From: Methanothrix sp.
GTDB lineage: Archaea > Halobacteriota > Methanosarcinia > Methanotrichales > Methanotrichaceae
Direction of reading: 5' to 3'
Assembly (NCBI GenBank): GCA_963682135.1
Contig: OY821645.1
Location: 352,001-416,000 of the forward strand
DNA length: 64,000 nucleotides
Positions within the stretch are counted from its first letter, which is position 1, and every line of letters starts with the position of its first letter. The translations under genes were made by a program, and so were the position numbers. The notes beneath the pieces were generated by a model. It was given only the letters and a program-made list of their open reading frames with translations, searched no databases and had not been told where the DNA came from. Positions 1,226 through 25,185 of this stretch are shown one piece after another.

Positions 1226-4200
1226 TCAAGGCAGACTGTCGTCACCAGTGTCCATGCACGAGGCACAGGACGGCAAGACCACTGTGTTCCCTGGTTCACC
1301 AGTTCCACAGGTGTAGCAGGGTACCCAGTCATCATCATAGATCAGACCGCTGCAATTAAGCCCGAAGCACGTGGGCGGCTGCCAGTCTGAGGATGTGGAC
1401 GAAGGCAGTGCCCCTCCGACGCCTATATCGACGCGAGACTCAACATCTGCCGCAGCCCCCTCCGGCCCGTCCACTGAGAAGGCTTCGATATGAGCCACAT
1501 TAACATAGACGCCATCCGACTGTGCCTCAGTCCTGTATACGATGGTCCTATTCTCTCCTGGTGCCAGGTCGAGGATGGTCCAGGTTATCAGGTTAGACCT
1601 GTTCTCAGAAGGCTCCTGAGATGAGTTGAGCAGCTTCATGGATGCAGGTAGCTGGTCCATCAAGAAAGCCACCATGGTGTATTTCTCACGGTTTTTGAGA
1701 TTCAGGCTGTACCAGACCACCTTCGCGTCCAGAGCATCGACCCTGGCGGTCTTGCTAGCGGAGATCTGGGGTGGGCAGCAGGTCAGCCAGTTCATGCGGA
1801 CCACGGAGAAGTTCCTGGCCAGCGTCCATCCGTTACCGTAATTGCCTGCCGCCTCCACCCGGTTCACCAGATTGGATGGCTCCTCTGTGATGTTTAGTCG
1901 CAAATCGATGATTGTCTTGCTGCCGATACCCATAACAGGCAGCGACCAGTTGGCATAACTTGTCGTCAGCTCTGCCGGCCGCAGAGATGAGGTGATGTAC
2001 TCGGTTCCCGTCGGGAAGACGTCCTTGACATAGACCGGCCCTAAAGCCCGGTTGCCGTTGTTCTCGATGGTGATCCGATAGTCCGCATAGGAAGTGTTAA
2101 GCTGGTCCACTTTAGCCATCTTGCTCAAAGAAATATGCGGTCGATCGTACTTGGCCACGCCTCCAAGGGAGGTCTTTCTCCGCATATCAAATTCTCCGAC
2201 ATATGTCTCCTCTTGATCTACTTCATCGGTGCTATTCGGAGAATTGTCCCTATAGACTGTGCGGAAATCAGCCTGACCGGTCACCTTAGCCTCTGTTACC
2301 ATCTCGTTTAGGCCTCGGGCGGTTGACTGGAGATCCAGGTTCTCTACTGAGGAAAAGATCTCACTAATCAGGCTGGTGGGGGTCTTGGACCACATGCCTT
2401 CCTTCCACTTTATGTCGCTGGACGTGGAGAAGGTGGGCGTGTAAATGTAGCCGGTCGGCAAGTGAGTGAGGTTGATATCCTTGGCGATATAGTTTACCAC
2501 CGAACTGATCTTCTCCTCACTCTGGTAATTGCCCGTGCCGGACTCGTAAGACGACTGGGCTTTGCCAAGATCTCTGCTTGCAGAAACATAACCCGTGCCG
2601 TTCACGGATTTCTCGTATTCCACATTCTTGCCGTATTCATCAAATTTCTGATTGATTTTAAAGCTGCCCACATAGTCTTCTTGGGACTCGAAGACTTGGC
2701 TCGCGTTCCAGGTTCTATTCTCATCGGCATCTTTTTTGACGAGACCGATATGACCAACGCCTTCGAAGTCGGCTTCGGTCTTCATAGTGCTGCCGTTCTC
2801 GTCCAGCTTCAGTGAGCTGTTCCGGCTGATGCGATTCGCGTGGGTATACTCCTCGTTTGTGGAGCCACCTGTGGCGTAGTTCTTGGATTCGGCTTTCTCC
2901 GACCACTTGCTCTGGAAATCGACATCACGATTATTGGGCAGTGAGAAGGTGGTTGGCTTGTGAGTTACAGTCAGGCCCTTGGTCCACTGAATAGAGCGGT
3001 TGGAGTTCTGGTACTTAATCACATCCTCGCTGGCATATTCGCCGCTGCCGTGCTCCTTGAGGGCGACATATGTCTGAGGCGGGCCGACGTTGACTTCGGT
3101 GGAGGCAGTCATGGGTATATTTCCATTTGAATCCACCATTTTTGCTCGATTTGTAAGGATTAGGGGCTCTGTACGGATATCATTGTGAACATTAACGAAT
3201 CCCTTTCCGATCACGCCTTGATCCATGTCAAAGGAGGTGTTGCCGAGGTCTTGCGCCACCAGAACTAAGATAATGATGGTCCCGGATTCTTGCCCATCTA
3301 TTATCCATTTGTTGTTATTGCCATCATCAACGGGTGTTGGGGACGCGGATACGAAGGAGACTCCTTTCGGGTAGTCATCCACAATCATATGTCCAGAAAT
3401 ACCACACCAGGTAATGTTCCATGTAATGTTATATGTCACATAGTCTCCTGGCTTCACAACCTTAGGTGAGGCTGTCTTCGTAAGGCTGCAACCTATGAGA
3501 ATCTTTACGTTTTCTGTTGCTTTCCCAGTAACCACGTTTCCATCTGGATCCAATGCAGTGGCGATGACTATATTTACCAACTGCGGAGCGTCTCCCGCTT
3601 TCGCGATGTAGTTCATGTAATAGCTGCGTGACTCGCCCGGTTCCAGGGGATCTGGATCGTTGAGCACAATAATGCCCAGCTTGTCATCGTTGAGGGTTAA
3701 GGAGGTGAGAGCTATGGTGCCATTGTTCACCACTGTGTACTTGTATCTTATATTATCGCCAGGTTTAGCTACCTCCCGGTCCGCCTCCTTGAAGACGAGC
3801 AAACGCAGCAATGGTTGAGGGGTCTGGCAGCTCCATCCCAAATCAACACAGGCCCGCTTGCTCACCACCTGTTCATCTATTTCTCCCATTTTCCCATATG
3901 CTGTTGCACAATTCGTGAGGTATTCCGCTACTGCAAATCCTGGAGTTCTTCTATATTCAATGCTGATCATGTTGCCATAGGGGTCAACTATCATGATCAG
4001 GGTGTCTCCTGTGGCATAGTAGCGCACCGTGTAGGTTCTGTAGCCCTTTTCCGGTTTATTGTACTCTATCTTTAGAGTCTCCTTGGTTGGCGAGAATCTA
4101 TAGAACTCCAAGATAACCTCGCCTTTCAAGCCGTAGGTTGTGACAAGGATGTCGTACTTATCCGGCCTGTTGTACTCTGACGATACCAGGAATCCTGTAG

Positions 4201-7200
4201 CATTTAGCTGCTCGTTTAGAGTCTCTCCAGTCGATATATTCGTGTAGTTGTTAAATGTGTAGTTGGCTCCAGCAATGCTCTTTATGCACGATTCTCGAGT
4301 CACGTTGGCCTTATCGAATGCATCTCGATGTTTCTTAATGCTTTTCAGTTTGGCTTCCAGTTTGGTCTTATTTCTGGATAGAGCATCAATTATCTGCACA
4401 ATATTGACAGGGTCGTTTCCTGCCGCCATGACTTTCAGCTTCGTCTCATCAGCAGCTACGATGGGAGGGATGGTAGTTGAGGTCGAAGATGCGCTGCAGG
4501 CATCCGGACTCAATTTAACGCTGTAAGCAATGGTCCAGGAATTTCCTGGTTGCAGAGAGCCGAGAGGGCCCAGATCAAAGATCAGATTGCCGCCGTCAAA
4601 GGTGTGCTGGATTAATGTACTTCCTGAATATGCATAAGGAATAAATTCCAGCATCGGGCTTAGCTCGTCAACGATTTTAATATCATGAATCTCTATTTTT
4701 CCGGTATTCTTCACAGTGATAGTAAAAGTGGTTTGCGTATTTGGATTTAAGATTTCATCTGTAGTAGTCTTCGTGATCTCCAGAGGTGACTTCTGTCCGC
4801 CCGAACCTGTATATTTGTTTCCGAAATCTGCATTGTTCGATGCAACTTCAGTCTGGTCAGACCTGGTTACTGTGATCTGACCGGTTTCTGAAACCACAAT
4901 GCTGTAAATATTGTCCGCCGGGTAGGTCTGGGTCCAGTCTGACGAAAAAGAAGGCACCTCTTCCAGCGTGTAGGTACCTGGCAAGATGCCTGTAAATCTA
5001 TATGATCCAAGAGTTGCGGTTTCAGTAGACGTAGTAGCACTCTTGACTACAGTATCACCTTGCATCAGATTTATCGTCCAACCGCCCAGCAACTCGTTTC
5101 CCTGTTTGGAGCCGTCACCTTCGCTATCGTTAAACTTTACGCCAGATAACGAGACATCTGCCCCTATTACCTGGTTGCCAAAGTTCACCTCTGTCGATGA
5201 GACCACTGTCTGCCCGGTGTCTGACATTCTTACTACTATCTGGCCAGTATTCGATATTTCTACCGTGTAAACCTTGCCTGACGGGGCTGTTTGAATCCAT
5301 CCGAGCCTCTGTTCTTCTTCAACCGTGTAGCTGCCGGGAATGATTCCGGCAAACGCATAGCCTCCGTCTGAACCGGTTGTGGTCGTAGCAATTATTGTAT
5401 CAGCATTTTTCAGATTGATGGTCCAGCCTTCCAATCCCGGTTCATCCGCATCCCTGGCGCCATTGCCATTAAGGTCCTCGAACTTTATGCCGCTAAAACC
5501 AGCAGTACGCACATTGCCAAAATCCAGGTCATTGGGTCCGGCTGCATTTGAGACCAGGGTTACGGTGTGGCTACCAGGTGAAGAAGGATAAGTCTGAGAC
5601 CAGCCTGATTGGGCAACCTCCTCCACAGTGTAAGTGCCGGGAGCGATTCCGGTGAACACATAGACTCCGTCTGGACCGGTTGTTGTCGTGGCGAAAATTA
5701 TACCGCCATTTTTCAGATTGATGGTCCAGCCTTCCAGTCCAGGTTCACCAGCATCCTTGACGCCATTGCCATTGAGGTCCTCGAACTTTATGCCGCCAAA
5801 GCCGGTGGCACGCATATTGCCAAAATCAATGTTCGTAGGTCCGGCGACTCCCGAAACCATGGTTACCGTATGGATGCCAGGCGATGCAGGATAAGTCTGA
5901 GACCAGTCGCTCTGCATTACTTCTTCAACTGTGTAGCTTCCGGGAGCAATTCCTGTAAACTCGTAATTCCCGTCTTGGCCGGTTGTGGCGGTGGCGACTA
6001 CTGTATCGCCACTCTTCAGGTTAACCGTCCAGCCTTCCAGTCCAGGTTCACCAGCATCCTTGACGCCATTGCCGTTGAGGTCCTCGAACTTTATGCCGCC
6101 AAAGCCGGTGGCACGCATATTGCCAAAATCAATGTTCGTAGGTCCGGCGACGCCCGATACCAGGGTTACCGTATGGATGCCAGGCGATGCAGGATAAGTC
6201 TGAGTCCAGCCGCTCTGCACTTCTTCTTCAACGGTGTAGCTTCCTGGAGCAATTCCTGTAAACTCATAAGTCCCGTCTTGGTCGGTTGTAGCGGTGGCGA
6301 CTACTGTATCGCCGCTTTTCAGGTTAACCGTCCAGCCTTCCAGTCCAGGTTCACCAGCATCTTTGACGCCATTGCCGTCCAGATCTTCAAATTTCATCCC
6401 AGATAGACCCGTCTGTCTCCAGTTACCGAAATCAATGTCAGTCGGTCCGGCTACACCCGATACCAGGGTTAGGGTTTGCGCGCCCGGTGAAGCAGGATAG
6501 GACTGAGTCCAGCCGCTCTGTACAGCTTCTTCAACTGTGTAGCTTCCTGGAGCAATTCCTGTAAACTCGTAAGTCCCGTCTTGGCCGGTTGTGGCGGTGG
6601 CGACTACTGTATCTCCACTCTTCAGGTTGACCGTCCAACCTTCTAAGCCCGGCTCGCCCGCATCCCTGGCACCATTGCCGTTGAGGTCCTCGAACTTTAT
6701 GCCGCCAAAGCCGGTGGCACGCATATTGCCAAAATCGATGTTCGTAGGTCCGGCTACACCCGAAACCAGGGTTACCGTATGTATGCCAGGCGATGCAGGA
6801 TAAGTCTGAGTCCAGCCGCTCTGCACTTCTTCTTCAACGGTGTAGCTTCCTGGAGCAATTCCTGTAAACTCATAAGTCCCGTCTTGGTCGGTTGTAGCGG
6901 TGGCGACTACTGTATCGCCGCTTTTCAGGTTGACCGTCCAGCCTTCCAGTCCAGGTTCACCAGCATCTTTGACGCCATTGCCGTCCAGATCTTCAAATTT
7001 CATCCCAGATAGACCAGTCTGTCTCCAGTTACCAAAATCAATGTCAGTCGGTCCGGCTACACCCGATACCAGGGTTAGGGTTTGCGCGCCCGGTGAAGCA
7101 GGATAGGACTGAGTCCAGCCGCTCTGTACAGCTTCTTCAACGGTGTAGCTTCCGGGTGCAATTCCAGTAAACTCATAAGTTCCGTCAGGACCGGTTGTGG

Positions 7201-8080
7201 TGGTGGCGACTACTGTATCGCCGCTCTTCAGGTTGACCGTCCAGCCTTCCAGTCCAGGTTCACCAGCATCCTTGACGCCATTGCCGTTGAGGTCCTCGAA
7301 CTTTATGCCGCCAAAGCCGGTGGCACGCATATTGCCAAAATCAATGTTCGTAGGTCCGGTGACGCCCGAAACCAGGGTTACGGTTTGCGTGCCCGGTGAA
7401 GCAGGATGAGTCTGAGTCCAGCCGCTCTGCACTTCTTCTTCAACGGTGTAGCTTCCTGGAGCAATTCCTGTAAACTCGTAAGTCCCGTCTTGGCCGGTTG
7501 TGGCGGTGGCGAAAATTATGCCGCTATTTTTCAGGTTGATAGTCCAGCCTTCTAAGCCCGGCTCGCCCGCATCCCTGGCACCATTGCCATTAAGGTCCTC
7601 GAACTTTATGCCGCTAAAGCCCAAAAGTGGAAGTACTGTGATCGTAACAAGGCACGTATCTTTGCATCCATCTGGTGCCCCTGTTGGGCCCAGAACAAGA
7701 GTAATATGATAATCAGTGGAAGCTGTAACCTCGGGCGCAACAAAGGTGAATGACCAGGCATCGGTTCCCGAATCTCGCACTATTTCAGGATCGCAGGCCC
7801 AGTCATAGCTGTATCCAGTTCCAGATGGTTCTGCTATTAATGAAACATGCTGTCCACTGTAAGCGGTAAGAGATACGGGACAGGATTGGGGTGCGCTACT
7901 ACCCGTCGGGCACATGAACGATAAGCATAGCAGCACCAGTATCCAGGCTAAGGAGGCTTTGAAGCGAAAAGGATCGTATGAAGTAGCTTTTTGCATCTGT
8001 TGTTGACGTAAATGATCAACCTGCACAAATTTGTCACTCATTTTAACTTCCTTTGGCTTATCCGATAAGTGCCTCGACAT
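1226..8080 (-). CDS. Giant secreted/cell-surface protein: signal peptide, N-terminal Cys-containing Ig-like domain, 9 SdrD-B/CnaB-like repeats, several DUF11-like domains, Cys-rich C-terminus
   Basis: Hydrophobic segment LAWILVLLCLSFMC. Repeats GxKFEDL[ND]GNG..DAGEPGLEGWT.NL. DUF11-like segments (LEITKT..., VFKEADREVAKPGDNIRYKYTVVNNG, LTKTASPKVVKPGDYVTY). True start may be ATG at 8041. Confidence 0.88.
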   Translation of the reverse strand: MSRHLSDKPKEVKMSDKFVQVDHLRQQQMQKATSYDPFRFKASLAWILVLLCLSFMCPTGSSAPQSCPVSLTAYSGQHVSLIAEPSGTGYSYDWACDPEIVRDSGTDAWSFTFVAPEVTASTDYHITLVLGPTGAPDGCKDTCLVTITVLPLLGFSGIKFEDLNGNGARDAGEPGLEGWTINLKNSGIIFATATTGQDGTYEFTGIAPGSYTVEEEVQSGWTQTHPASPGTQTVTLVSGVTGPTNIDFGNMRATGFGGIKFEDLNGNGVKDAGEPGLEGWTVNLKSGDTVVATTTTGPDGTYEFTGIAPGSYTVEEAVQSGWTQSYPASPGAQTLTLVSGVAGPTDIDFGNWRQTGLSGMKFEDLDGNGVKDAGEPGLEGWTVNLKSGDTVVATATTDQDGTYEFTGIAPGSYTVEEEVQSGWTQTYPASPGIHTVTLVSGVAGPTNIDFGNMRATGFGGIKFEDLNGNGARDAGEPGLEGWTVNLKSGDTVVATATTGQDGTYEFTGIAPGSYTVEEAVQSGWTQSYPASPGAQTLTLVSGVAGPTDIDFGNWRQTGLSGMKFEDLDGNGVKDAGEPGLEGWTVNLKSGDTVVATATTDQDGTYEFTGIAPGSYTVEEEVQSGWTQTYPASPGIHTVTLVSGVAGPTNIDFGNMRATGFGGIKFEDLNGNGVKDAGEPGLEGWTVNLKSGDTVVATATTGQDGNYEFTGIAPGSYTVEEVMQSDWSQTYPASPGIHTVTMVSGVAGPTNIDFGNMRATGFGGIKFEDLNGNGVKDAGEPGLEGWTINLKNGGIIFATTTTGPDGVYVFTGIAPGTYTVEEVAQSGWSQTYPSSPGSHTVTLVSNAAGPNDLDFGNVRTAGFSGIKFEDLNGNGARDADEPGLEGWTINLKNADTIIATTTTGSDGGYAFAGIIPGSYTVEEEQRLGWIQTAPSGKVYTVEISNTGQIVVRMSDTGQTVVSSTEVNFGNQVIGADVSLSGVKFNDSEGDGSKQGNELLGGWTINLMQGDTVVKSATTSTETATLGSYRFTGILPGTYTLEEVPSFSSDWTQTYPADNIYSIVVSETGQITVTRSDQTEVASNNADFGNKYTGSGGQKSPLEITKTTTDEILNPNTQTTFTITVKNTGKIEIHDIKIVDELSPMLEFIPYAYSGSTLIQHTFDGGNLIFDLGPLGSLQPGNSWTIAYSVKLSPDACSASSTSTTIPPIVAADETKLKVMAAGNDPVNIVQIIDALSRNKTKLEAKLKSIKKHRDAFDKANVTRESCIKSIAGANYTFNNYTNISTGETLNEQLNATGFLVSSEYNRPDKYDILVTTYGLKGEVILEFYRFSPTKETLKIEYNKPEKGYRTYTVRYYATGDTLIMIVDPYGNMISIEYRRTPGFAVAEYLTNCATAYGKMGEIDEQVVSKRACVDLGWSCQTPQPLLRLLVFKEADREVAKPGDNIRYKYTVVNNGTIALTSLTLNDDKLGIIVLNDPDPLEPGESRSYYMNYIAKAGDAPQLVNIVIATALDPDGNVVTGKATENVKILIGCSLTKTASPKVVKPGDYVTYNITWNITWCGISGHMIVDDYPKGVSFVSASPTPVDDGNNNKWIIDGQESGTIIILVLVAQDLGNTSFDMDQGVIGKGFVNVHNDIRTEPLILTNRAKMVDSNGNIPMTASTEVNVGPPQTYVALKEHGSGEYASEDVIKYQNSNRSIQWTKGLTVTHKPTTFSLPNNRDVDFQSKWSEKAESKNYATGGSTNEEYTHANRISRNSSLKLDENGSTMKTEADFEGVGHIGLVKKDADENRTWNASQVFESQEDYVGSFKINQKFDEYGKNVEYEKSVNGTGYVSASRDLGKAQSSYESGTGNYQSEEKISSVVNYIAKDINLTHLPTGYIYTPTFSTSSDIKWKEGMWSKTPTSLISEIFSSVENLDLQSTARGLNEMVTEAKVTGQADFRTVYRDNSPNSTDEVDQEETYVGEFDMRRKTSLGGVAKYDRPHISLSKMAKVDQLNTSYADYRITIENNGNRALGPVYVKDVFPTGTEYITSSLRPAELTTSYANWSLPVMGIGSKTIIDLRLNITEEPSNLVNRVEAAGNYGNGWTLARNFSVVRMNWLTCCPPQISASKTARVDALDAKVVWYSLNLKNREKYTMVAFLMDQLPASMKLLNSSQEPSENRSNLITWTILDLAPGENRTIVYRTEAQSDGVYVNVAHIEAFSVDGPEGAAADVESRVDIGVGGALPSSTSSDWQPPTCFGLNCSGLIYDDDWVPCYTCGTGEPGNTVVLPSCASCMDTGDDSLP
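5170..7625 (-). repeat. Intragenic tandem array of 303-bp (101-aa) SdrD-B-like repeats: 8 close copies, with one diverged copy just downstream
   Basis: Near-identical DNA blocks recur every 303 bp (e.g. 5985, 6288, 6591, 6894, 7197, 7500). Each carries a D-x-[ND]-G-N-G-x-x-D Ca-binding-like loop. Boundaries approximate. Confidence 0.92.
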
Positions 8081-10928
8081 TTATGGGGGGAATTTCCCAT
8101 ATTACTATCTGCATTTGATCCACGGATTGGTCAGAGCATCCGGTTGCTGTCAATGTGATTGTGACTGAACCTGCAACTTTATCTGCTGCGCTCGGTATGT
8201 AGTAAGCTGTTGTGAGAGATGTGGGGTTTGAAATGGTACCTTCTGTCCCTGATGATGTCCAAAGATAAGTGGCAGCCCCACCAGAATTGGTGCCAATTAG
8301 AGGCACCTTTTCTACATTATCGCAGACGTCCTGATCGGACCCGGCTGATACTATCGGGCTGCCCAGGATCGATACTTGTTTGCTGCATAGAGGAGTGGTG
8401 CATCCTGCTGGCGTGGTTAACGTCACTTTGATGAAAGCTGTGCCTGCTGTGCCTGCCGTCCAGGTGATGCTGTTCGTGTAAGGCGGTGAAGATGTTATCG
8501 TTCCTCCTGTGATCGTCCAGGCATAGGTCGCCCCGGCCCCGGCGTTGGCAACTGAAGCCGTGTTGCTTGTCGATCCCGCGCAGATCGAAGAATCTGCATT
8601 TATGGTGCAGTCCGGTAGAGGATTGATCGTAACCTCCTTGCTGCATTGAGGAACGGTGCATCCAGCCGTCGTGGTCACTGTAACTTTGATGGAAGCTGTG
8701 CCTGCTGAGCCTGCCGTCCAGGTGATGCTGTTCGTGTAAGGCGGTGAAGATGTTATCGTTCCTCCAGTGATCGTCCAGGCATAGGTCGCCCCGGCCCCGG
8801 CGTTGGCAACTGAAGCCGTGTTGCTCGTCGATCCCGCGCAGACCGAAGAATCTGCATTTATGGTGCAGTCCGGCAGAGGATCGATCGTAACCTCCTTGCT
8901 GCATTGAGGAACAGTGCATCCTGCTGGCGTGGTTACCGTCACTTTGATGGAAGCTGTGCCAGCTGTGCCTGCCGTCCAGGTGATGCTGTTCGTGTAAGGC
9001 GGCGAAGATGTTATCGCTCCTCCTATGATCGTCCAGACATAGGTCGCCCCGGCACCGGCGTTCGTGACAGACGCTGTATTTCCAGTTGATCCAGCGCAGA
9101 CGAAACTAGGTGAAGTTATGGTACAGTCCGGCAGAGGATTGATCCTAATCTCATTGCTACAGGCTTTTGAACAATGAGCATCATTTACCGTCACTCTAAT
9201 GAAAGCTGTACCAGTCGAGCCTGCCGTCCAGGTAATGCTGTTCGTATAAGGTGGCGAAGAGGTTATTGTTCCTCCTGTGATCGTCCAGGCATAGGTCGCC
9301 CCGGTTCCTGCGTTCGTGACAGACGCTGTATTTCCCATCGATCCAGCGCAGACGAAACTTGGAGATGTTATGGTGCAGTCCGGCAGAGGATTGATCGTAA
9401 CCTCCTTGCTGCATTGAGGAACAGTGCATCCTGCTGGCGTGGTTACCGCCACTTTGATGGAAGCCGTGCCTGCTGAGCCTGCTGTCCAGGTGATGCTGTT
9501 CGTATAGGGTGACTGAGAGGTTATCGTTCCCCCAGTGATCGTCCAAGCATAGGTCGCCCCGGCCCCGGCGTTGGCAACTGAAGCCGTGTTGCTCGTCGAT
9601 CCCGCGCAGACCGAAGAATCTGCATTTATGGTGCAGTCCGGCAGAGGATCGATCGTAACCTCCTTGCTGCATTGAGGAACAGTGCATCCTGCTGGCGTGG
9701 TTACCGTCACTTTGATGGAAGCTGTGCCAGCTGTGCCTGCCGTCCAGGTGATGCTGTTCGTGTAAGGCGGCGAAGATGTTATCGCTCCTCCTGTGATCGT
9801 CCAGACATAGGTCGCCCCGGCCCCGGCGTTGGCAACTGAAGCCGTGTTGCTCGTCGATCCCGCGCAGACCGAAGAAGCTGCATTTACAGTGCAGTCTGGC
9901 AGAGGATTGATCGTAATCTCCTTGCTGCAGGCTTTTGAACAATGAGCATCATTTACCGTCACTATGATGGAAGCTGTGCCTGCCGAGCCTGCCGTCCAGG
10001 TGATGCTATTCGTATAGGGCGACTGAGAGGTTATCGTTCCTCCCGTGATCGTCCAAGCATAGGTCGCTCCGGTCCCTGCGTTAGGAACTGAAGCCGTATT
10101 GCCCGTTGATCCTGCGCAGACGGAACTGGTTGACGTGATGGTGCAATCCGGCAATGGGTAGACGATTACATCATAAATCCTCTGGGATGAATGGAGCAGA
10201 CTATCTGTAACGATTAGTTTAACTGAATATGTCCCTGCAGATGCATATGTGTGAGTTGGATCTTTTGCAGTGCTTGAGCTGCCGTCTCCAAAAGTCCAGG
10301 CATAGCCATAAGGTGCAACTCCGCCGGTAGTTTTGTCTGTGAAGGAAGTCGAAGTGCCAAGGCAGGCCTTCGTAAAGATAAAATCTGCTATTAGCGGGGG
10401 TGGGACATTGATCGTAGATCCTGAATAATAGCACTTGGCAGGGATATAGTCGGCACATCTGTCATATGCGCATGCTCCTGAATCGGTATTCCAGGCTGCA
10501 TAAATATCCTTTACCTCCAGCGATTGCCCACAGATGTAACTAACTTGAGATATTTGCAGCTCGAAATCGCTGGTGGGCAACTCTCCAATATGATTTTCGA
10601 TCAGTCTCCAGCTTCCATCTAGGTTTTTAACTTGTATTGCGGTATGTGCGCAATGTCTGGCACTGCTCGATGATACGTGGAATTTTGCCCAGAGGGTCGC
10701 AGTTGCTGCAGTTCCTGGTGTACACGTACTGTCTGATGTCAGCCATACATTTGTAATAGCGACATCATTCGCGGTACAACCACTGCAACAATAGGGCCAG
10801 GTTCCGCTGCAAGCCCCGTGAACAAGAGGTATTTGCACGATAGATATTATAAATATAGTAATTATAAAATTCAATTTCATAATAAATCCCTCGTCATACC
10901 AAATTGCCAGGCCTTTGTAAGGTAACAA
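8058..10928 (-). CDS. Secreted protein: Cys-rich N-terminal domain, PKD domain, 7 Cys-containing Ig-like repeats, terminal PKD-like domain
   Basis: Signal peptide MKLNFIITIFIISIVQIPLVHG (likely start 10880). PKD motif FTDKTTGG..YAWTFGDGSSST.KDPTHTY. Seven PLPDCT...VCAGS...TYAWTITGG repeats. Confidence 0.88.
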   Translation of the reverse strand: MLPYKGLAIWYDEGFIMKLNFIITIFIISIVQIPLVHGACSGTWPYCCSGCTANDVAITNVWLTSDSTCTPGTAATATLWAKFHVSSSSARHCAHTAIQVKNLDGSWRLIENHIGELPTSDFELQISQVSYICGQSLEVKDIYAAWNTDSGACAYDRCADYIPAKCYYSGSTINVPPPLIADFIFTKACLGTSTSFTDKTTGGVAPYGYAWTFGDGSSSTAKDPTHTYASAGTYSVKLIVTDSLLHSSQRIYDVIVYPLPDCTITSTSSVCAGSTGNTASVPNAGTGATYAWTITGGTITSQSPYTNSITWTAGSAGTASIIVTVNDAHCSKACSKEITINPLPDCTVNAASSVCAGSTSNTASVANAGAGATYVWTITGGAITSSPPYTNSITWTAGTAGTASIKVTVTTPAGCTVPQCSKEVTIDPLPDCTINADSSVCAGSTSNTASVANAGAGATYAWTITGGTITSQSPYTNSITWTAGSAGTASIKVAVTTPAGCTVPQCSKEVTINPLPDCTITSPSFVCAGSMGNTASVTNAGTGATYAWTITGGTITSSPPYTNSITWTAGSTGTAFIRVTVNDAHCSKACSNEIRINPLPDCTITSPSFVCAGSTGNTASVTNAGAGATYVWTIIGGAITSSPPYTNSITWTAGTAGTASIKVTVTTPAGCTVPQCSKEVTIDPLPDCTINADSSVCAGSTSNTASVANAGAGATYAWTITGGTITSSPPYTNSITWTAGSAGTASIKVTVTTTAGCTVPQCSKEVTINPLPDCTINADSSICAGSTSNTASVANAGAGATYAWTITGGTITSSPPYTNSITWTAGTAGTAFIKVTLTTPAGCTTPLCSKQVSILGSPIVSAGSDQDVCDNVEKVPLIGTNSGGAATYLWTSSGTEGTISNPTSLTTAYYIPSAADKVAGSVTITLTATGCSDQSVDQMQIVIWEIPPINVEALIG
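8370..10160 (-). repeat. Seven tandem ~252-258-bp repeats encoding 4-Cys Ig-like domains
   Basis: Repeated near-identical DNA (gccgtccaggtgatgctgttcgt..., gatcgtccaggcataggtcgccccgg...). Two end variants, DAHCSKAC and PAGCTVPQC. Confidence 0.9.
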
Positions 10929-11081
10929 GGTTTTTGAGCGGTAAAAAGACTAATGCTAGGAACATATTCTTCGGGCATGGTTCTATTTCCCTCTTTCTGA
11001 TCTCATAGATGTGCGAAACATTATATTTTGAATTAAATAATTATTATATATTCTATCCTATGTTCCGGTCTAAATTACCAT

Positions 11082-11124
11082 TATCGAAAAAATGTCAAGG
11101 CATTGCTTAAATGCAGTGCCTTGA
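11082..11124 (-). terminator. Hairpin followed by a T-tract downstream of the 237-aa gene
   Basis: tcaaggcattgc (11095-11106) and gcagtgccttga (11113-11124) form a 12-bp inverted repeat with one mismatch, followed on the minus strand by TTTTTT. Confidence 0.6.
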
Positions 11125-11135
11125 AGCAGTCTTTT

Positions 11136-11849
11136 CTAGGTAATAGCCGAAGCCATGGTTGCCGTCGGATTGTAATATAGTGTAACTAATTGGCTGCACC
11201 ACTTTAGTATCGTGTCCGGACCACCCTGGCCATCCGCATCCTGCCTTACTACGAATGTCACATAAGTTGTCTTAGATGGGGTACCAGCATCAGGCACATT
11301 GAATCCCGTCCAGAGAGGCGATGGGGTATAGGTCTTTGAGTCAGCTACTATGACGCTGCCCCAGGTGCTCATATCCGTTTTGATTGGTATGGTGGCCACA
11401 TTGGTCTGGAGATACCACTCATAGAACAATGAATCTGGTGCGCTTTCGCAGACGTATGCCCATGTTGTTGCGTCAGCTATACAGGTTTCAGGAATCGATG
11501 GACAGGCAGTGCATAAGCCGCTGCACGTCAATACTATGTCGCAGATGGATTTACATGTGATTGGCGAACCTGTGGGGTTCATCATCAGAGTTACCGTCCA
11601 AGGACCGCCGCAAGCAGGGACATTGAACTCCATTATATTAGCTCCATCTGCGCTTTGCCCAGTAAGAGCCGAAGGTACAGTCCAGTCGTAGGTATATCCC
11701 GCACCTGATGGAGACGCCGTTAATTTGACATGCGATCCTTCTGTGACTGTTAAAGATAGACATGGTGCAGGCAGAGTAGCTGATACAGGAAATACAATTG
11801 CTGCTAGCAGGACTGCAAACGCAATCGTGATATAATTACTAGATTTCAT
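11136..11849 (-). CDS. Secreted Cys-rich two-domain Ig-like protein (candidate major filament subunit)
   Basis: Signal peptide ending VSA, GGAGG RBS. First domain aligns by eye with the N-terminal domain of the 2284-aa protein. The function is inferred. Confidence 0.8.
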   Translation of the reverse strand: MKSSNYITIAFAVLLAAIVFPVSATLPAPCLSLTVTEGSHVKLTASPSGAGYTYDWTVPSALTGQSADGANIMEFNVPACGGPWTVTLMMNPTGSPITCKSICDIVLTCSGLCTACPSIPETCIADATTWAYVCESAPDSLFYEWYLQTNVATIPIKTDMSTWGSVIVADSKTYTPSPLWTGFNVPDAGTPSKTTYVTFVVRQDADGQGGPDTILKWCSQLVTLYYNPTATMASAIT

Positions 11850-12408
11850 CGTTGTTTTCCCTCCATTTATCTTACAGGTCGCAGGCTACTGGAAACGATC
11901 CGCAAATCAACCCATGATATCACATCGAAGAATGAATACTTGAGTCAATTGATCGCATCTCTTTTTTCTCAGATAACCGCCATTTTTTTAGCTTCACATC
12001 TAACTTAGTACAATCTCATAATAACTACTTAAGTCTTTCTTTGGATCGTATTAGATCTGGATCGTAGAAAAAATTTGTATATTCCAAAAACCATAATCTG
12101 TAGTTCGGTTAAAATATCGAAAAGACTAAAATAAATTTATTACTTACAAAAAATTAATGATAACATCTAGAAATAAACTAAAATTGTTAAAGCAAGATAA
12201 GCAAGTACAATAGATCAGCGATATGTTTGCTGGTTAATTGTCTGGCTTTGAGGAATACGAATTAGATCATATTGGCATTCAGGGAACCTTCAGCACTAAA
12301 CAAGTTAATTGACTGATAGAAATTTTTATTAACTAGTAAGTAGGCCTATATTCTAGTTTGGATTTAAGAGTGCTCTCTTGCATATCTAATTGAGCAGGGT
12401 GACAAGTT

Positions 12409-13443
12409 ATGAGATATTTGATCCTATGGAGTTTATTGGCATTATTATTAGTAACGATAATGCCAGGGGCATCTCAACTTTCAGATAAGCCAACAATAAT
12501 AAATTTGATGATTGATGCTCAAATGCCATCATCGCCGACAGAGGAGCAGGCATCAATAGCTGAAAAAGACCTCGAGAATATATATAACCAAATTAATGAT
12601 AGAGGTCTGATCGCAACCATCTTCTCAACACAAGATATCCTTAGGACTGATCTCAACCTGGACCTCACACGCATAGGTTATCTATCCAAATTTGAGCTGG
12701 GTATGTCGGGAAATAATTCTAATGAAAAGATAAGCATTATGTCTTATGCCGATCAGATTGCTTCATTGAAGATATCAAAACGCTGGGTAGAAAGCTGCAT
12801 GATTTGCGGCAAAAATAATGTAACTGTGTATGGTTTTATGCCCCAATCCTTCGATCAGAACCAGGATACATACAGGGTTCTCGACGAATTGGGCATCCTG
12901 TATGATGTCGGTTTCCAGGCCGGGCTTTTATACACACCAGGACATGAGAACGACGTCTGGCCATATCTGGTAGCTGGCCACAAATTCTATGCTGTGCCGG
13001 TAAGCACTTACACTCTCTCAGACAAAAAGATGGTCCTGCAGGACAGCTACTTTGTGGTTAACGACATGGACGCCACTCAATGGTACGACGCGCTGGTTGG
13101 AAAGTTGGACGAAATTCAGGGTAAGGATGAGCCTATGGTGGTCAGCCTGTCGACGTCCGTTTCCGGCTCGGGAGACTATCTGAATTCGTTGGAACGTTTC
13201 ATGGATTACTCTATCTCTAAGAAGGCAAGTTTTGTAACCACTGCGGATCTTGTGTCTTTGGCTAAAACCAGCTCGCATGATGCATCATCGTTACCATCTA
13301 ACGTAACTAGCGAGTGTCCGACCTGCGACCAGAATAACAACCTCATCAACATAACGGCATTTGTGTCCATCAACGAATCCATTCAAGTAGCCAACAATAC
13401 AACAACCGTTATAACTCCAGAGAGTGTAGTGACCGCTAAATGA
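12409..13443 (+). CDS. Secreted polysaccharide-deacetylase-like (NodB/CE4-fold) protein, probably divergent
   Basis: Signal peptide. INLMIDAQ, ATIF, ELGMSG, YGFMPQSF..N...YRVLDELGILYD and YAVPVS segments follow the CE4 barrel order, but the canonical His motif is absent. Confidence 0.65.
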   Translation: MRYLILWSLLALLLVTIMPGASQLSDKPTIINLMIDAQMPSSPTEEQASIAEKDLENIYNQINDRGLIATIFSTQDILRTDLNLDLTRIGYLSKFELGMSGNNSNEKISIMSYADQIASLKISKRWVESCMICGKNNVTVYGFMPQSFDQNQDTYRVLDELGILYDVGFQAGLLYTPGHENDVWPYLVAGHKFYAVPVSTYTLSDKKMVLQDSYFVVNDMDATQWYDALVGKLDEIQGKDEPMVVSLSTSVSGSGDYLNSLERFMDYSISKKASFVTTADLVSLAKTSSHDASSLPSNVTSECPTCDQNNNLINITAFVSINESIQVANNTTTVITPESVVTAK

Positions 13444-20937: not shown

Positions 20938-23900
20938 TCACAGCTTGCCAATGCATGGCTGACATTCCCTTCGCTCCCAGGGCAAGATGCTGCTCCGGTT
21001 AAAGCTTCCTTCCTGCGGACAGGTAAGGCAATTCGCATCAGGGTTATCCATGAATCGTCCCCATTCCTCTCTGGTCATATTCCGAGTTACGCGGCTGCAA
21101 GCCTCGTCCATGACTTTGCCGTTATTCAATGTCCATATTTGTGCGGCTTTATCGTCGCAGCCAGTTGCAAGTTTGCTGCCATCTGGGCTGAAGGCCACCG
21201 CATTCACTGAGTCATCATGCTCAAGCCTTTGAAACTCTCTTCCTGTTTGTATATCCCACAATCGAGCCGTTTTATCAGAGCTCCCGGTTGCTAGCCAGCG
21301 TCCGTCTGGGCTAAAGGCTACTGCGTTCACTGAGCCATCATGCTTAAAAATCCTCAGCTCTTTGCCCGTCTCTATATCCAACAATCGAGCTGCTTTATCA
21401 AAGCTCCCGGTTGCCAACCAGCGCCCATCAGGACTGAAGGCAAGTGCTGACATCACATAATCGAATGCCAGACGCTTCATCTTTTTTCCGGTTTGAACGT
21501 CGAAGATTTGAATCACCATGGCAAAGGCCGAGACAATTGTGGCCAGCAGTCTCCCATCAGGGCTGAATGCCATCGCCCACACCGATTCATGATTCTCCAA
21601 TCTCTGCAACTCTTTTCTGGTTTGAACATCCCACAATAGAGTTGTATTGTCAGAGCTGACTGTAGCCAAAATTATTGCATCCAAGCTGAATGCCATCTGC
21701 TCCATCGAGCCATCATACTCTGGACTCCTCAGTTCTGTTCCGTTTTCGATATCCCACAGATGGGCTGCATAATAATGATCGATTTTGGCATCATCAACAC
21801 TGATAGTAGCCAATGTTTTTCCGTTAGGGCTGAAGATTACCGAATGCACTCCATCATTATGCACGAGTCTCAATAAACCTCTATTTTTCGGTACATCCCA
21901 CAATCGAACCATCCTGTCAGTGCTACTAGTTGCAATCCAGCTTCCGTCCGGGCTGAATGTCATTGCTTTTACTTCGCCATGATGCTCAAGACTCTGTAGC
22001 TCTTTGCCTGTCTCGACATCCCACAATCGAGCAGCAATGTTTCCGAAGAGAGAGTGGGACTCTTTGTTGCGGGTGACTAATTTTCTTCCGTCCGGGCTAA
22101 ATTTCACCATATCTACTACACCATGATGCTCAAGACTCTGTAGCTCTTTACCTGTCTCGACATCCCACAATCGAGCCATAGTATCATCGCAGCCAGTAGC
22201 CAGCATTCTTCCGTCCGGGCTAAATTCCACCGCATGCACTGATACATGAAGCTCAAGCCTTTGAAGATTTTTTCCTTTTTGAGCATCCCACAAATAAGCA
22301 CGATCTTTGCAGATAGTTGCCAGTTTGCTTCCATCTGGACTGAATGCTACCATTCTCACCCAAGAATCGTGTTTCAGCCTCTGTATCTCTTTTCCGGTTT
22401 GAACATCCCACAGTAGGGTTGTATTATCATTACTAGCCGTAGCCAGCCTGTTCTTATCCCGGTCAAATGCCATCGCTCTGCCCGAGCCATCATTTTCCAG
22501 CCTTAGCAACTCTTTTCCAGTTTGAACATCCCACAAATGAGCCGTATAATCATTGCTGATCGTGGCTAGTCTGTCACCATCTGGGCTGAATGCCATATAA
22601 TTTAAGCTGCTATCATTACCCAGCCTCTTCAGCTCTTTACCGGTTTGGACGTCGTAAATTCGAACCGCATTATAAAAGCTGCTGCTCGTGGCCAGCGATC
22701 TTCCGTCCGGGCTAAAGGCTATCTTTGAAGCTGACTGAAATCCCTTCTGATTGTCATTACGCTCTATCCTCAGCAGCTCTTTGCCAGTTTGAATGCTCCA
22801 AATTCGAACCGTTCCATTATAATCTACTGTTGACGTGGCCAACAATCTTCCGTCTGGGCTAAATGCTACATTATTAACCCAATCGCTATGCTCCAGTTGA
22901 GCAATGCAAAGAGGAAATAGAGCCAGGCTACGTCTGAGTGCTGTGTTTCCTTCAAGCGTCTCTTTATGCCTCATAGATTCAACTGCCAGAAGAACGCTCT
23001 CTGTCAATGATCCGGCAACGCCTCTCATCTGCTCTGATTGCGCGGCTAGGCTTCTAGCCAGGGCTTCCGCCGTTTTTTCATTTGCCTGCTCTTTCTGATA
23101 TTGAGCAACTACTGCAGCGCACAGGGCAATGGTAGCAATGATAGCCAATACTTTTATGTACCGCCATCTAGTTCTCTCTTTCTCCGCCTTTGCTCTCTCT
23201 TCCTTCTCTCGCTCCCTTTCCCTCAAGCCCAGGCTGGCATTGATGAACTCCTGGTCAGCCTCGCCTAGGTCCTTCTCCCGCTCCTTTTGCCACCGCTCCG
23301 CCTCATCGAGCCGACTGCCCCGCAGCAGCCGGCCTTCGTCTCGACCGGACAGATCGGATGGTGAAGTCTGCTGCCATTCCCGTGCGTCCTTCTCCAGCTC
23401 CCTCTCCCAGGCCAGAAAGCTTCGATCTTTCTTCAGCCAGCGCTGGAGAAGCGCCCACTCCCGGATTAGAGAGTCGTGGATGATCTGTACGGTCTCTTCT
23501 CCATTGTCTAAATAGGTGGTCACGAGCCTGGCATCTGCCAGCCGCTGCACAACCTTTTGCACAGTCTCCCGCTCATTTTCGTCGTTTTCGTCATGCAAAA
23601 AGTCCGCCAGCCTTCTCTGCCTGCGGCTGTCCGGCAGCCTTTGCTTCTCGTCTCCCAGGTTGACCAGATCGGTGAGGATTCGCCTGGCAACTGCTCCGCG
23701 CCCCTCCTTCTCCAGGCTCCGGCAGACCTGATCCGCCCACGATGTTAAGCTGCCCGTCACCTTGCCTATGGTCTGGTAAGCATGGTGAGTGAGCAGGCCC
23801 TGCTCCCGCCTCTCCCAGAGCTGGGTGAGGGCAAACTCCAACAGCGGCAAGACTGTGCTCCTGCCCGCACGCGCGTTGCCCTCGCGGCTGCTCTCCAGGA

Positions 23901-25185
23901 CATCGTTGATGATCACCTCGGTTAGGCCTTCCTCCAGATGCAGGCCAACGCGGCGGGCAGGCTGCTGGATTATCTCACGCAGCTCCTCATACTCCAGGTT
24001 GGAGCCCACCTGGAAGAAGCCGCGCTGGGTCCATGCCAGAACCGCAGGGGGCGCATCATCGGCAAAGCGGCTGAAGAAATCATCCCGCATTACGGCAAGA
24101 ACATAGATCTCAATATCCGAATCAAGTAGATCCTCGAGCTCGGACCAGAAATTGCGGCGAATATCTGATGGACAGGTGACCAGAAACTCCTCAAACTGAT
24201 CCAGTATGACAAGCAGCTTCTCCTGGCCGGGGTTCCTTGATATCCAGCCCCTTGCGGCCTCTGCGAGGCCAGCGAAAGCTCCCCTCAGCCCTGCTCTCTC
24301 CAAGTTATCGAAGGGCCGGTCAGCAGGCTGGGCCAAAATTATTCCCCAGCGATCGCTCCCCGGAACAGAGCCACGTCGAAGCTGCGGGATGAGGCCCGCC
24401 TGCACCACAGAGGATTTGCCGCTTCCTGAAGGGCCCATGACCAGAAGGAAGCGCGGCCTGGCACGCAAGGCCTCCTCCAGCCCCTCCACCAGATGCCTTC
24501 GCCCGAAGAAGAACTCCGCCTCTTTTTCCGTAAAAGGGGAAAGGCCCATGTAAGGCCGCACATTGGAAGGCACAAGCTGCGGATAGATGGATATGAGCGT
24601 CTCGGCGGGTGTGATGAAAGCCGTATCTGCCAGTCTTCCGAATCTGTCGGGCGCAGCGATGGATGTGACCATGCCCACCACCCGGCGTGCCTGCATATCG
24701 AAGATGGGCGCCCCGGAAAAGCCGGGCGTGATCTCGGAGCTCTTCACCTGCAGAACCCTGATTCCAAGAATTGTCGTCTTATCCATCAGCCGGCCTTCTC
24801 CGCAGATGCCCTCTTCCTGACTCTGATCAGGAAAGCCGAATGTCTGAAGATCATGGCCTGCAGCTCCATCGGAGCAGCCGATAGAAAGAGGTACGACCTC
24901 CGGTGGCAGCGGCCCTTCCAGTTGCAGCAGAGTCACATCCTCAGTCTCTGCCGCCCGCCAGGCCTGCGGCAGCAGCCGTGCTGTTCCTCTCTGGCCATTG
25001 ACGCGAAAGATTACCTCTATTTTCTCCGGCTTGGAATAGACTCGCGCCTGCAATTTCTCAGCTTGAATGACATGCGAGCAGGTGGCAATGATCCCCTTTT
25101 CCGACAGGACAAAACCGGTTCCTGTGGTAGTCGTGCCATCTGCGGCCAGTATTCTGACTATCCCTGCCTTGAGGTCAAAGGGCAT
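20938..25185 (-). CDS. Trypsin-like serine protease + nSTAND1-type NTPase + TM helix + 14 WD40 repeats
   Basis: Triad motifs TCSHV, EDVTLL and PGFSGAP. PYMGL..F...EAEFFFGR, Walker A GPSGSGKSS, Walker B LLVILDQFEE, LPLLEFALTQLW, IHDSLIREW. Hydrophobic VLAIIATIALCAAVVA. Fourteen AFSPDG-type repeats. Confidence 0.93.
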   Translation of the reverse strand: MPFDLKAGIVRILAADGTTTTGTGFVLSEKGIIATCSHVIQAEKLQARVYSKPEKIEVIFRVNGQRGTARLLPQAWRAAETEDVTLLQLEGPLPPEVVPLSIGCSDGAAGHDLQTFGFPDQSQEEGICGEGRLMDKTTILGIRVLQVKSSEITPGFSGAPIFDMQARRVVGMVTSIAAPDRFGRLADTAFITPAETLISIYPQLVPSNVRPYMGLSPFTEKEAEFFFGRRHLVEGLEEALRARPRFLLVMGPSGSGKSSVVQAGLIPQLRRGSVPGSDRWGIILAQPADRPFDNLERAGLRGAFAGLAEAARGWISRNPGQEKLLVILDQFEEFLVTCPSDIRRNFWSELEDLLDSDIEIYVLAVMRDDFFSRFADDAPPAVLAWTQRGFFQVGSNLEYEELREIIQQPARRVGLHLEEGLTEVIINDVLESSREGNARAGRSTVLPLLEFALTQLWERREQGLLTHHAYQTIGKVTGSLTSWADQVCRSLEKEGRGAVARRILTDLVNLGDEKQRLPDSRRQRRLADFLHDENDENERETVQKVVQRLADARLVTTYLDNGEETVQIIHDSLIREWALLQRWLKKDRSFLAWERELEKDAREWQQTSPSDLSGRDEGRLLRGSRLDEAERWQKEREKDLGEADQEFINASLGLREREREKEERAKAEKERTRWRYIKVLAIIATIALCAAVVAQYQKEQANEKTAEALARSLAAQSEQMRGVAGSLTESVLLAVESMRHKETLEGNTALRRSLALFPLCIAQLEHSDWVNNVAFSPDGRLLATSTVDYNGTVRIWSIQTGKELLRIERNDNQKGFQSASKIAFSPDGRSLATSSSFYNAVRIYDVQTGKELKRLGNDSSLNYMAFSPDGDRLATISNDYTAHLWDVQTGKELLRLENDGSGRAMAFDRDKNRLATASNDNTTLLWDVQTGKEIQRLKHDSWVRMVAFSPDGSKLATICKDRAYLWDAQKGKNLQRLELHVSVHAVEFSPDGRMLATGCDDTMARLWDVETGKELQSLEHHGVVDMVKFSPDGRKLVTRNKESHSLFGNIAARLWDVETGKELQSLEHHGEVKAMTFSPDGSWIATSSTDRMVRLWDVPKNRGLLRLVHNDGVHSVIFSPNGKTLATISVDDAKIDHYYAAHLWDIENGTELRSPEYDGSMEQMAFSLDAIILATVSSDNTTLLWDVQTRKELQRLENHESVWAMAFSPDGRLLATIVSAFAMVIQIFDVQTGKKMKRLAFDYVMSALAFSPDGRWLATGSFDKAARLLDIETGKELRIFKHDGSVNAVAFSPDGRWLATGSSDKTARLWDIQTGREFQRLEHDDSVNAVAFSPDGSKLATGCDDKAAQIWTLNNGKVMDEACSRVTRNMTREEWGRFMDNPDANCLTCPQEGSFNRSSILPWERRECQPCIGKL

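Follow-up and report, generated by a model that had tools for sequence, protein, structure and literature searches.

Do three neighbouring genes of Methanothrix sp. encode unrelated surface proteins, or the separately made pieces of a single fibre? The genes, here called A, B, and C, lie in a stretch of 64,000 nucleotides (contig OY821645.1 of assembly GCA_963682135.1, positions 352,001–416,000 of the forward strand), which was analyzed as a whole and is referred to as the window; coordinates are those of the window unless another locus is named. The three genes are real open reading frames (ORFs), which share the minus strand and are arranged head to tail, and their translations match those quoted in an earlier sequence-only reading, which had proposed a filament built by strand donation. 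Judged by reading, all three proteins start with signal peptides of the Sec type. The explanation that is favored here, and whose probability is put slightly above the midpoint, is that A-B-C forms a strand-linked modular fibre or split adhesin with the order B → A(n) → C. In this proposal, the proteins would be secreted separately through Sec and joined non-covalently outside the cell by beta-strand donation. The Pro-led C-terminal tail of one protein (the “plug”) would lie antiparallel along the exposed edge strand (residues 40–45 in A) of the neighbor's N-terminal PKD/Ig-like domain (the “socket”), and would there occupy the place of strand A of a complete Ig/PKD domain. B, which consists of a variable head, PKD domains, and a tail, would thus donate only, A with its socket and tail could be inserted once or many times, and C would only accept and end the chain, since it has a socket in front of a long SdrD_B/DUF11 body and no tail. 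The resulting B → A(n) → C chain would be equivalent to one very long tandem-Ig adhesin cut in pieces.

The proposal is based on the distribution of plugs and sockets among the three proteins. Gene A (237 amino acids, P0001; 11136–11849, minus strand, as all features of A, B, and C given below) is the proposed repeating subunit and has both parts. Its N-terminal PKD/Ig-like socket domain (residues 25–110; 11520–11777), which was delimited by the structure models and by homology to the N-terminal domain of C, is followed by a Cys-rich linker with a second beta domain (residues 111–225; 11175–11519) and by the tail of residues 226–237 (YNPTATMASAIT; 11139–11174). Gene B (956 amino acids from a TTG start codon; 8058–10928) encodes the candidate plug-only subunit, whose tail (residues 945–956, EIPPINVEALIG; 8061–8096) comprises the 12 residues past its last domain. 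The candidate socket-only subunit is the product of gene C (2284 amino acids, P0003; 1226–8080), which opens with an A-homologous domain (residues 64–150; 7631–7891) and lacks an end of the type found in A and B. The sequence-only reading had pointed out the extra Pro-led strands at the ends of A and B as well as the similarity of the N-terminal domains of A and C, and both observations stand. The N-terminal domains share 33% identity over 120 residues (BLASTP, E = 3e-13; E = 6.6e-24 with the A2 profile), and a search of the 3.04-Mb single-contig genome with A gave no match besides A itself and the N-terminus of C. A itself has no Pfam or NCBIfam match and belongs to a small family (10 relatives of similar length; 25 representative clusters at E ≤ 0.001), in which the close relatives carry the name Methanothrix in their source record. 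The A family profile weakly touches the PKD domains of KIAA0319L, and the A N-domain also shows similarity to Ig/PKD repeats inside long bacterial proteins and is thus an ordinary Ig/PKD-like domain. Among the matches listed, a Foldseek search of A against the PDB retrieved generic tandem-Ig chains only (template-modelling score about 0.3) and thus no pilin relative.

Structure models of A were built on its own 20-sequence alignment (A2). The monomer model, which has a predicted local distance difference test (pLDDT) value of 87.1, consists of two beta domains and a free tail that forms an unpacked coil. Its N-domain contains seven strands (residues 31–36, 40–44, 52–57, 63–67, 72–76, 83–92, and 101–110), and in the region of residues 111–225, whose Cys residues are conserved in the alignments A1 and A2, most blocks of ten residues have a pLDDT above 90. 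Three copies of mature A were then modeled as a complex with alignment A2 and compared with three controls. The complex scored 0.52, 0.51, and 0.51, and the best control 0.00. The score mark applied is reached by 20 of 30 proteins solved as one-chain pairs and by 1 of 23 solved as single chains, but the own 20-row alignment and the use of three copies differ from this calibration, so that up to 19 of 100 single chains may pass. The complex runs agree in at least 85% of contacts, with a partner pLDDT of at least 82. They place the copies head to tail, with residues 225–237, 121–126, and 186–192 of one copy against residues 30–35, 39–47, 51–52, 88–96, 98–105, and 138–140 of the next. The register is constant along the closest pairs (235:42, 234:43, 233:44, and 232:45), and since the sum of each pair is the same, the tail runs antiparallel to strand 40–45. 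Contacts are consecutive along residues 39–47 and alternate on residues 31/33/35 and 101/103/105, a pattern that can be read as the tail forming a pair with edge strand B while it packs against the inner side of the opposite sheet, which is the place of strand A. Together, the two models suggest a slot beside strand 40–45 that is empty in the monomer and taken by the tail of the neighbor in the complex. A-to-A docking through the C-terminal tail and the N-domain, the interaction by which the 237-amino-acid protein had been supposed to polymerize, is thus predicted by the model.

These models also bear on a different role of the tail, namely that of a C-terminal sorting, processing, or cis-packing element that would be cleaved off or folded back on its own protein. 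The position of this short, conserved, and Pro-led segment at the extreme C-terminus of secreted proteins would fit such an element, as would the aromatic residue on which some of the tails finish (..VAF, ..VIF, or ..IAY). However, the tail is unpacked in the monomer model and packed in trans in the three-copy model, the tails contain neither a hydrophobic helix nor a known archaeal sorting motif, and their sequence varies widely between clades with the beta-strand pattern being kept. A sorting, processing, or cis-packing function is therefore considered very unlikely.

The A family is restricted in its range. Of 61 genomes from the same family that were searched with an A profile, 21 gave a match, and these belong to 7 of the 16 genera covered. 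In a sample drawn from the whole class, 19 of 99 family members had a match, compared with none of 101 genomes from five sister families. Two sets of loci were compared: 21 loci, consisting of the window and the surroundings of all 20 non-own A matches, and six further loci from four genomes of the class-wide sample. The order A-B-C on one strand was found at 17 of the 21 loci first examined and at three of the six further loci (L052–L054), which amounts to 20 of 27 in total. The three genes hence occur together and in the same order across several genera, a point that the sequence-only reading had left to synteny searches. Two of the checks proposed in that reading, the homo-oligomer model of A and the co-occurrence of the genes, have therefore turned out in its favor; overall, its observations are partly confirmed and its interpretation is partly supported. 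Among the 17 cassettes, the C gene runs into the contig end in L023 and L025, is interrupted by a masked run in L029, and is divided into two ORFs in L030; at L026 the contig ends within B. The lengths of the proteins range from 216 to 267 amino acids for A (937–939 amino acids in L040 and L041), from 276 to 956 for B, and from 1236 to 2284 for C, and a long A-like protein is also encoded at L050 and L051.

The division of parts is kept in these cassettes. By reading, each of the 17 A and each of the 17 B proteins finishes with a hydrophobic strand that is followed by a Pro and by 7–15 residues in an alternating pattern, an ending that none of the C proteins has; every C opens with an A-like domain, and B never contains this domain. 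The earlier assignment of donor plus acceptor to A, donor only to B, and acceptor only to C therefore holds in all 17 cassettes. A loose tail pattern, which was composed after the tails had been seen and misses four A proteins and one B protein that are tailed by eye, hit 17 of 21 A-like proteins, 16 of 17 B proteins, 2 of 15 complete C proteins, and, among the other ORFs of these loci with a length of 200 amino acids or more, 9 of 129. Within the tail, P228 is conserved in 95% of the A family, and the degree of conservation alternates, with residues 232, 234, and 236 above residues 233 and 235; whole A proteins share about 20–30% identity between clades. On the acceptor side, the mature N-terminus of many C homologs starts only about 4–12 residues ahead of the edge strand (for example ...CSA/DDGRSITLTGPEGDYIYHW in L040), which leaves no room for a strand A in these proteins.

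Additional support comes from co-variation within genomes. Scored over their last 18 residues, A and B average 25.8 when both come from one genome and 17.0 when they come from different clades; in permutation tests with a single representative of each of the 10 clades, all 200 selections gave p ≤ 0.002. The sockets of A and C score 83.6 within genomes and 56.3 otherwise (p = 0.002–0.01), a likeness that is driven by four clades including that of the window. In the window, A and C are identical at 16 of 29 modeled interface positions and at 15 of 50 positions elsewhere (Fisher p = 0.034). Docking of B to A and of A to C is inferred.

Several points weigh against a strand-linked fibre, in addition to the differences from the calibration and the origin of the socket signal in four clades mentioned above. 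A with A is the sole pairing that was modeled. The window's own A and B tails score 11, below the mean of 12.8, and this score is equaled or exceeded by 11 of 15 tails from other clades; moreover, gene conversion instead of a shared partner could be behind both co-variation signals. The N-domain of A folds confidently with seven strands in the absence of any tail, and an incomplete fold is therefore not evident for the socket. Judged by motifs, strand A is as good an assignment as strand A′ for the first strand of this domain. At some loci the cassette is incomplete. L033 and L034 contain A and gene D (12409–13443, plus strand, in the window), which encodes a secreted protein of 344 amino acids, is divergent from A, and is a conserved companion of the cassette, but neither B nor C. 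L055 contains D, A, and then C, no B, and a second A-like ORF upstream of D, and L038 encodes an atypical A-like protein of 552 amino acids with a tail and two socket-like repeats; its first domain appears to be complete, and neither B nor C accompanies it. Reading of the A, B, and C sequences revealed no transmembrane segment or PGF-CTERM anchor, and no assembly machinery is encoded among the genes near A-B-C. The sequencing runs listed as containing the stretch (six runs of DNA or unknown kind from two studies) include no RNA run.

For the acceptor slot, the observations are seven strands that are predicted at high pLDDT without a tail, a complex model that sets the tail beside strand 40–45, and very short mature N-termini in C homologs. 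The suggestion of the sequence-only reading that the N-domains of A and C lack a Pro-led first strand is not literally correct, as mature A begins with TLPAPC-LSLTVT and mature C with PQSCPVSLTA, and the model has a strand at residues 31–36; it is supported only indirectly. A comparison of the A socket with the PKD_6 repeats of B by hhalign was weak (probability 10%, E = 0.003) and did not fix the strand register. In the model, strand 31–36 can be read as A′, and the slot of strand A would then be the place that is filled by the tail.

A confidently folding socket, together with the lack of a detected anchor or assembly machinery, would also fit A, B, and C being independent secreted surface proteins or adhesins, with tails that are merely the leftover linker and first strand from the fission or shuffling of giant tandem-Ig proteins. 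The tail indeed resembles the linker plus first strand that joins the tandem PKD_6 repeats of B (...TINPLPDCTITS), and domain shuffling is rife in these proteins, as indicated by at least two kinds of heads, the length range of B, and a single-chain combination of B- and C-like parts described below. Such leftovers would nevertheless have been retained by every one of the 17 A and 17 B proteins in spite of the low identity of A between clades, with P228 almost invariably present and with tails that co-vary within genomes. Furthermore, the docking model of A passes against its controls, and a strict split into donor-only and acceptor-only proteins is hard to obtain by drift. Independence of the three proteins is consequently regarded as unlikely, although it deserves more weight than a sorting function of the tail.

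The spacing of the genes raises the question of whether A belongs to the same system as B and C. The start of C overlaps the end of B by 23 nt (8058–8080), and the B–C gap in the 17 cassettes has a median of 8 nt (range −64 to 39), compared with a median of 143 nt (range −58 to 304) for the A–B gap. The coupling of B and C, with A spaced apart, fits a 1:1 ratio of B to C and a separate regulation of A, and the layout suggests that A is expressed separately from the coupled B-C pair. A short hairpin followed by a T6 run is located 14–50 nt past the A stop codon (11087–11122, minus strand) and is a possible terminator or attenuator between A and B. The AT-rich intergenic region between D and A (11850–12408, assigned to neither strand; G + C content of 0.37 in 12001–13000) is the presumed promoter region. 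For B, the ATG at 10880, from which a normal signal peptide (MKLNFII...) would be translated, is more likely to be the start codon than the TTG at 10928.

This arrangement could also mean that A alone polymerizes into a homopolymeric fibre with D, whereas B and C make up a two-part adhesin of their own or are simply unrelated neighbors that do not take part in the A fibre. Besides the hairpin, the T-run, and the larger gaps that part A from B, the presence of D and A without B and C in L033 and L034 is in line with this idea. D generally tracks A: according to blastp, a D homolog adjoins A in 19 of the 20 loci L022–L041, the missing locus being one that starts at the A gene, and in all six loci L050–L055, mostly in divergent orientation. 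The genome also contains a B-C-like pair without A or D (see below), and docking was modeled for A-A only. On the other hand, C and A have homologous sockets, whose likeness is greatest at the modeled interface, the A and B tails co-vary within genomes, and the A-B-C order is conserved in 20 of 27 loci. A fibre of A without B and C is hence rated as improbable, between the independence of the three proteins and a sorting role of the tail.

Related genes in the same genome speak for a strand-linked fibre of B, A, and C. A B profile detected two more relatives, both outside the window (L048 and L049). At L048 (8078–13441, plus strand), a B′ protein of 370 amino acids with a Pro-led tail (...ITVTPEPIAVIGWVV) is followed, after 6 nt, by a C′ protein of 1414 amino acids, which contains a short socket-like N-domain and six DUF11 repeat stretches. 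The upstream gene is unrelated, and neither A nor D is present. L049 (6290–12982, minus strand) encodes a single chain of 2230 amino acids, in which a B-like head is joined through many Ig-like repeats to a C-like body with a W-PP-W / Cys-rich C-terminus; by blastp, its head matches B′ with E = 2e-30 and B with E = 2e-24, and its body matches C with E = 3e-49. Parts of the same kind are thus distributed over three genes, over two, or united in one chain, as expected if tail and socket replace a covalent domain junction.

According to Pfam, the Cys-rich head of B is followed by a PKD domain, seven PKD_6 stretches, and a K319L-like PKD domain that ends at residue 942 (residues 188–943 for the whole PKD region; 8100–10367), with seven PLPDC-led repeats. 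The head is a Cys-rich beta-sandwich of the WPxCxxxCxAxDV type (residues 38–185; 10374–10817), which is conserved in 12 aligned B proteins, has no family match, and was modeled with AF2 at a pLDDT of 84.2. A search for its function gave only generic beta-sandwich, PKD, transglutaminase-domain, and GhpA-fragment matches in Foldseek and ESM Atlas features of at most 0.77, none of which allowed a function to be named. At least two unrelated kinds of heads precede a similar last domain and tail in the B proteins. One type occurs at L023, L024, L026, and L052–L054, and the other in the window and at L022, L027–L029, L031, L032, L035, L037, and L039–L041. At L053, whose A protein is 90% identical to that of the window, the head is of the type not found in the window and the last domain and tail are almost unchanged. 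It looks as if B heads had been swapped.

In C, a family-less N-domain is followed by nine SdrD_B stretches and by repeats of DUF11 and DUF7507, and the Cys-rich end lacks a hydrophobic anchor. The nine SdrD_B (CnaB-like) repeats form a putative stalk with approximate boundaries (residues about 151–1080; 4841–7630; PF17210, E = 9e-132), and the DUF11/DUF7507 repeats and unassigned beta-rich regions, as recognized by Pfam and by reading, extend over residues of about 1100–2200 in front of the Cys-rich C-terminus (1481–4783). No PDB sequence relative was found for residues 1195–2284. Compared with the NCBIfam model of SdrD, C scores 300.8 bits at a cut-off of 2500; the B-repeat domain alone is shared, and C is accordingly not an SdrD of the microbial surface components recognizing adhesive matrix molecules (MSCRAMM) type. 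In L029, the C-like gene (2695–3831, plus strand) is interrupted by the masked run, which is translated as X, and continues in separate ORFs. The naming of B as “tip” and of C as “base/stalk” in the earlier reading is unsupported guesswork; no membrane anchor was seen by reading in A, B, or C. How many A units the chain would contain, which of its ends would face the cell, and whether it serves in adhesion or aggregation are matters of inference.

D has no Pfam (none meaningful at E ≤ 5), NCBIfam, or PDB relative, and PPR matches, which were the only ones found with a D profile among PDB sequences, were dismissed as spurious. In the ESM Atlas, D reaches a feature score of 0.96 with a cluster whose automatic name is “NodB homology domain-containing protein”, which is no more than a lead to a NodB (polysaccharide deacetylase)-like identity. 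D was also considered as a protein with a Pro-led donor tail, as it ends with ...VITPESVVTAK in the window, but this end is not conserved in 15 homologs. At L030, the C-like ORF includes a fused D-like domain (residues 1016–1290). Genes in the neighborhood of A-B-C code for an AsnC regulator, CorA, CNNM/CorC, a histidine kinase, and QueC. Farther away in the window (20938–25185, minus strand), a protein of 1415 amino acids with an nSTAND1 NTPase domain and many WD40 repeats is encoded.

A more elaborate version of the strand-linked fibre can be envisaged, in which a chaperone-free “split adhesin” would combine interchangeable B heads, an optional A extender, and long C bases into fibres of adjustable length with combinatorial tips, and in which D would be an extracellular helper or a glycan-modifying partner. 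The pieces would connect outside the cell as a C-terminal strand enters the strand-A slot of a PKD-like domain that is shortened at its N-terminus. It would be the first strand-complemented fibre in the family and the first archaeal one with a C-terminal donor. This version is tentative and rather doubtful.

Acetoclastic methanogens of the Methanothrix type prevail in anaerobic digesters, in granular sludge, and in many wetlands, and granules are built on a scaffold of their filaments. To our knowledge, the adhesins of sheathed methanogens are hardly known. If the proposed B → A(n) → C chain is correct, a family-restricted cassette for a clip-together fibre would provide concrete genes for aggregation, granule formation, and syntrophic contact, and a new route of these methanogens to surface fibres or adhesins is predicted. 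A C-terminal-donor variant based on PKD domains would join the archaeal strand-complemented filaments, and it would demonstrate that a giant tandem-Ig adhesin can be divided into genes without loss of continuity. The pair of tail and socket might also be of use as a small protein connector. Studies of archaeal adhesins are called scarce in a review (PMC11224092).

A strand-linked fibre of this kind can be compared with several known systems. Among the matches listed, and judged partly by title, the literature on Methanothrix/Methanosaeta and on methanogen donor-strand filaments contains no description of the A-B-C cassette. A mechanistic counterpart of the modeled A-A contact is found in the type V pili (FimA/Mfa1) of Bacteroidota, whose hallmark is a C-terminal donor strand that fills the groove in the N-terminal beta-sandwich of the neighbor. 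Type V pilins are lipoproteins, and a protease removes their own first strand and thereby opens the groove. Likenesses are the C-terminal donor that enters an N-terminal groove (in the present case in the A model only), the donor-only and acceptor-only caps, and the lack of an ATP-driven machine. In contrast, the proteins analyzed here have a PKD/Ig-like fold, are from an archaeon, include far larger end subunits, and give no sign of a removable pro-strand. A, B, and C have no FimA/Mfa match in Pfam or NCBIfam, and their signal peptides read as Sec/signal peptidase I substrates with no canonical lipobox. A TasA/camelysin-type domain was likewise not among the Pfam matches of A, B, and C at E ≤ 0.1. 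With regard to sortase pili, the matches of the SpaA “prealbumin-like fold” in C overlie the SdrD_B repeats, and C has neither an LPXTG motif nor a hydrophobic C-terminus.

Strand-complemented filaments of Archaea reportedly include bundling pili, cannulae, the haloarchaeal Tat (twin-arginine translocation) pilus, and AbpX, in addition to the following ones. The threads of Sulfolobus (Saci_0406) are described in PMC9715654 as Sec-secreted filaments of Ig-like subunits that are linked head to tail by donor-strand complementation with an N-terminal donor and by isopeptide bonds. The neighboring Saci_0405 is a donor-only protein and putative thread cap, and the polarity of threads and an assembly factor are left unresolved in that source (PMC9715654). 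The A-B-C proteins would thus resemble threads in being an archaeal, Sec-secreted, head-to-tail chain of Ig-like domains that is held together by strand donation and has a donor-only partner protein, whereas threads have an N-terminal donor and isopeptide bonds, and the A-B-C proteins a C-terminal tail and a giant acceptor-only C. No sequence or fold likeness of A to threads was found, as the Foldseek rows (about 40 from ranks 1–50, generic tandem-Ig) include no thread entry. The haloarchaeal Tat-fimbriae (tafi) consist of the tip TafC, the adapter TafE, the shaft TafA, and the anchor TafF, in a model that rests largely on AlphaFold (PMC11821415). Here the likeness lies in the multi-gene organization with a donor-only tip that carries a binding domain, a repeating subunit, and an acceptor-only terminator. 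The N-terminal donor strands, Tat export, small FimA-like subunits, and membrane-spanning anchor are tafi features that set them apart from A-B-C, whose n-regions by reading contain no twin-arginine motif and whose proteins match neither DUF1102 nor a related Pfam family. For the Mth60 fimbrin of Methanothermobacter, strand-exchange models by AlphaFold are reported in the same source (PMC11821415), and in threads, tafi, and Mth60 alike the donor strand is described as N-terminal (PMC9715654, PMC11821415). Since donor-strand filaments are established in Archaea and modeled for a methanogen fimbrin, a strand-linked filament is not new as a kind. The gene set itself was not found in print; the earlier reading, too, had named no description of it in methanogens.

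A strand of the neighbor also completes the Ig-like subunits of chaperone-usher pili (type 1 and P), which likewise have tip and terminator subunits (introduction of PMC9715654). These pili depend on an N-terminal extension, a periplasmic chaperone, and an outer-membrane usher, as opposed to the C-terminal tail of A and B in an organism without an outer membrane, and no chaperone or usher genes are located near A-B-C. Apart from the general mechanism, A-B-C exhibits none of the tested hallmarks of type V, chaperone-usher, thread, TasA, tafi, or sortase pili. Similar in composition are the single-chain PKD/SdrD_B/DUF11 surface proteins of methanogens such as that encoded at L049, which contain the same domain families as B-A-C and would be mimicked by it. 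For Methanothermobacter and Methanobacterium, a role of DUF11 proteins as aggregation factors has been proposed (PMC11224092), and A-B-C and the single-chain proteins probably share an adhesive or structural role. What distinguishes B-A-C from the latter is its split into separate genes, with a tail and a socket at each junction, and the resulting option that A could repeat.

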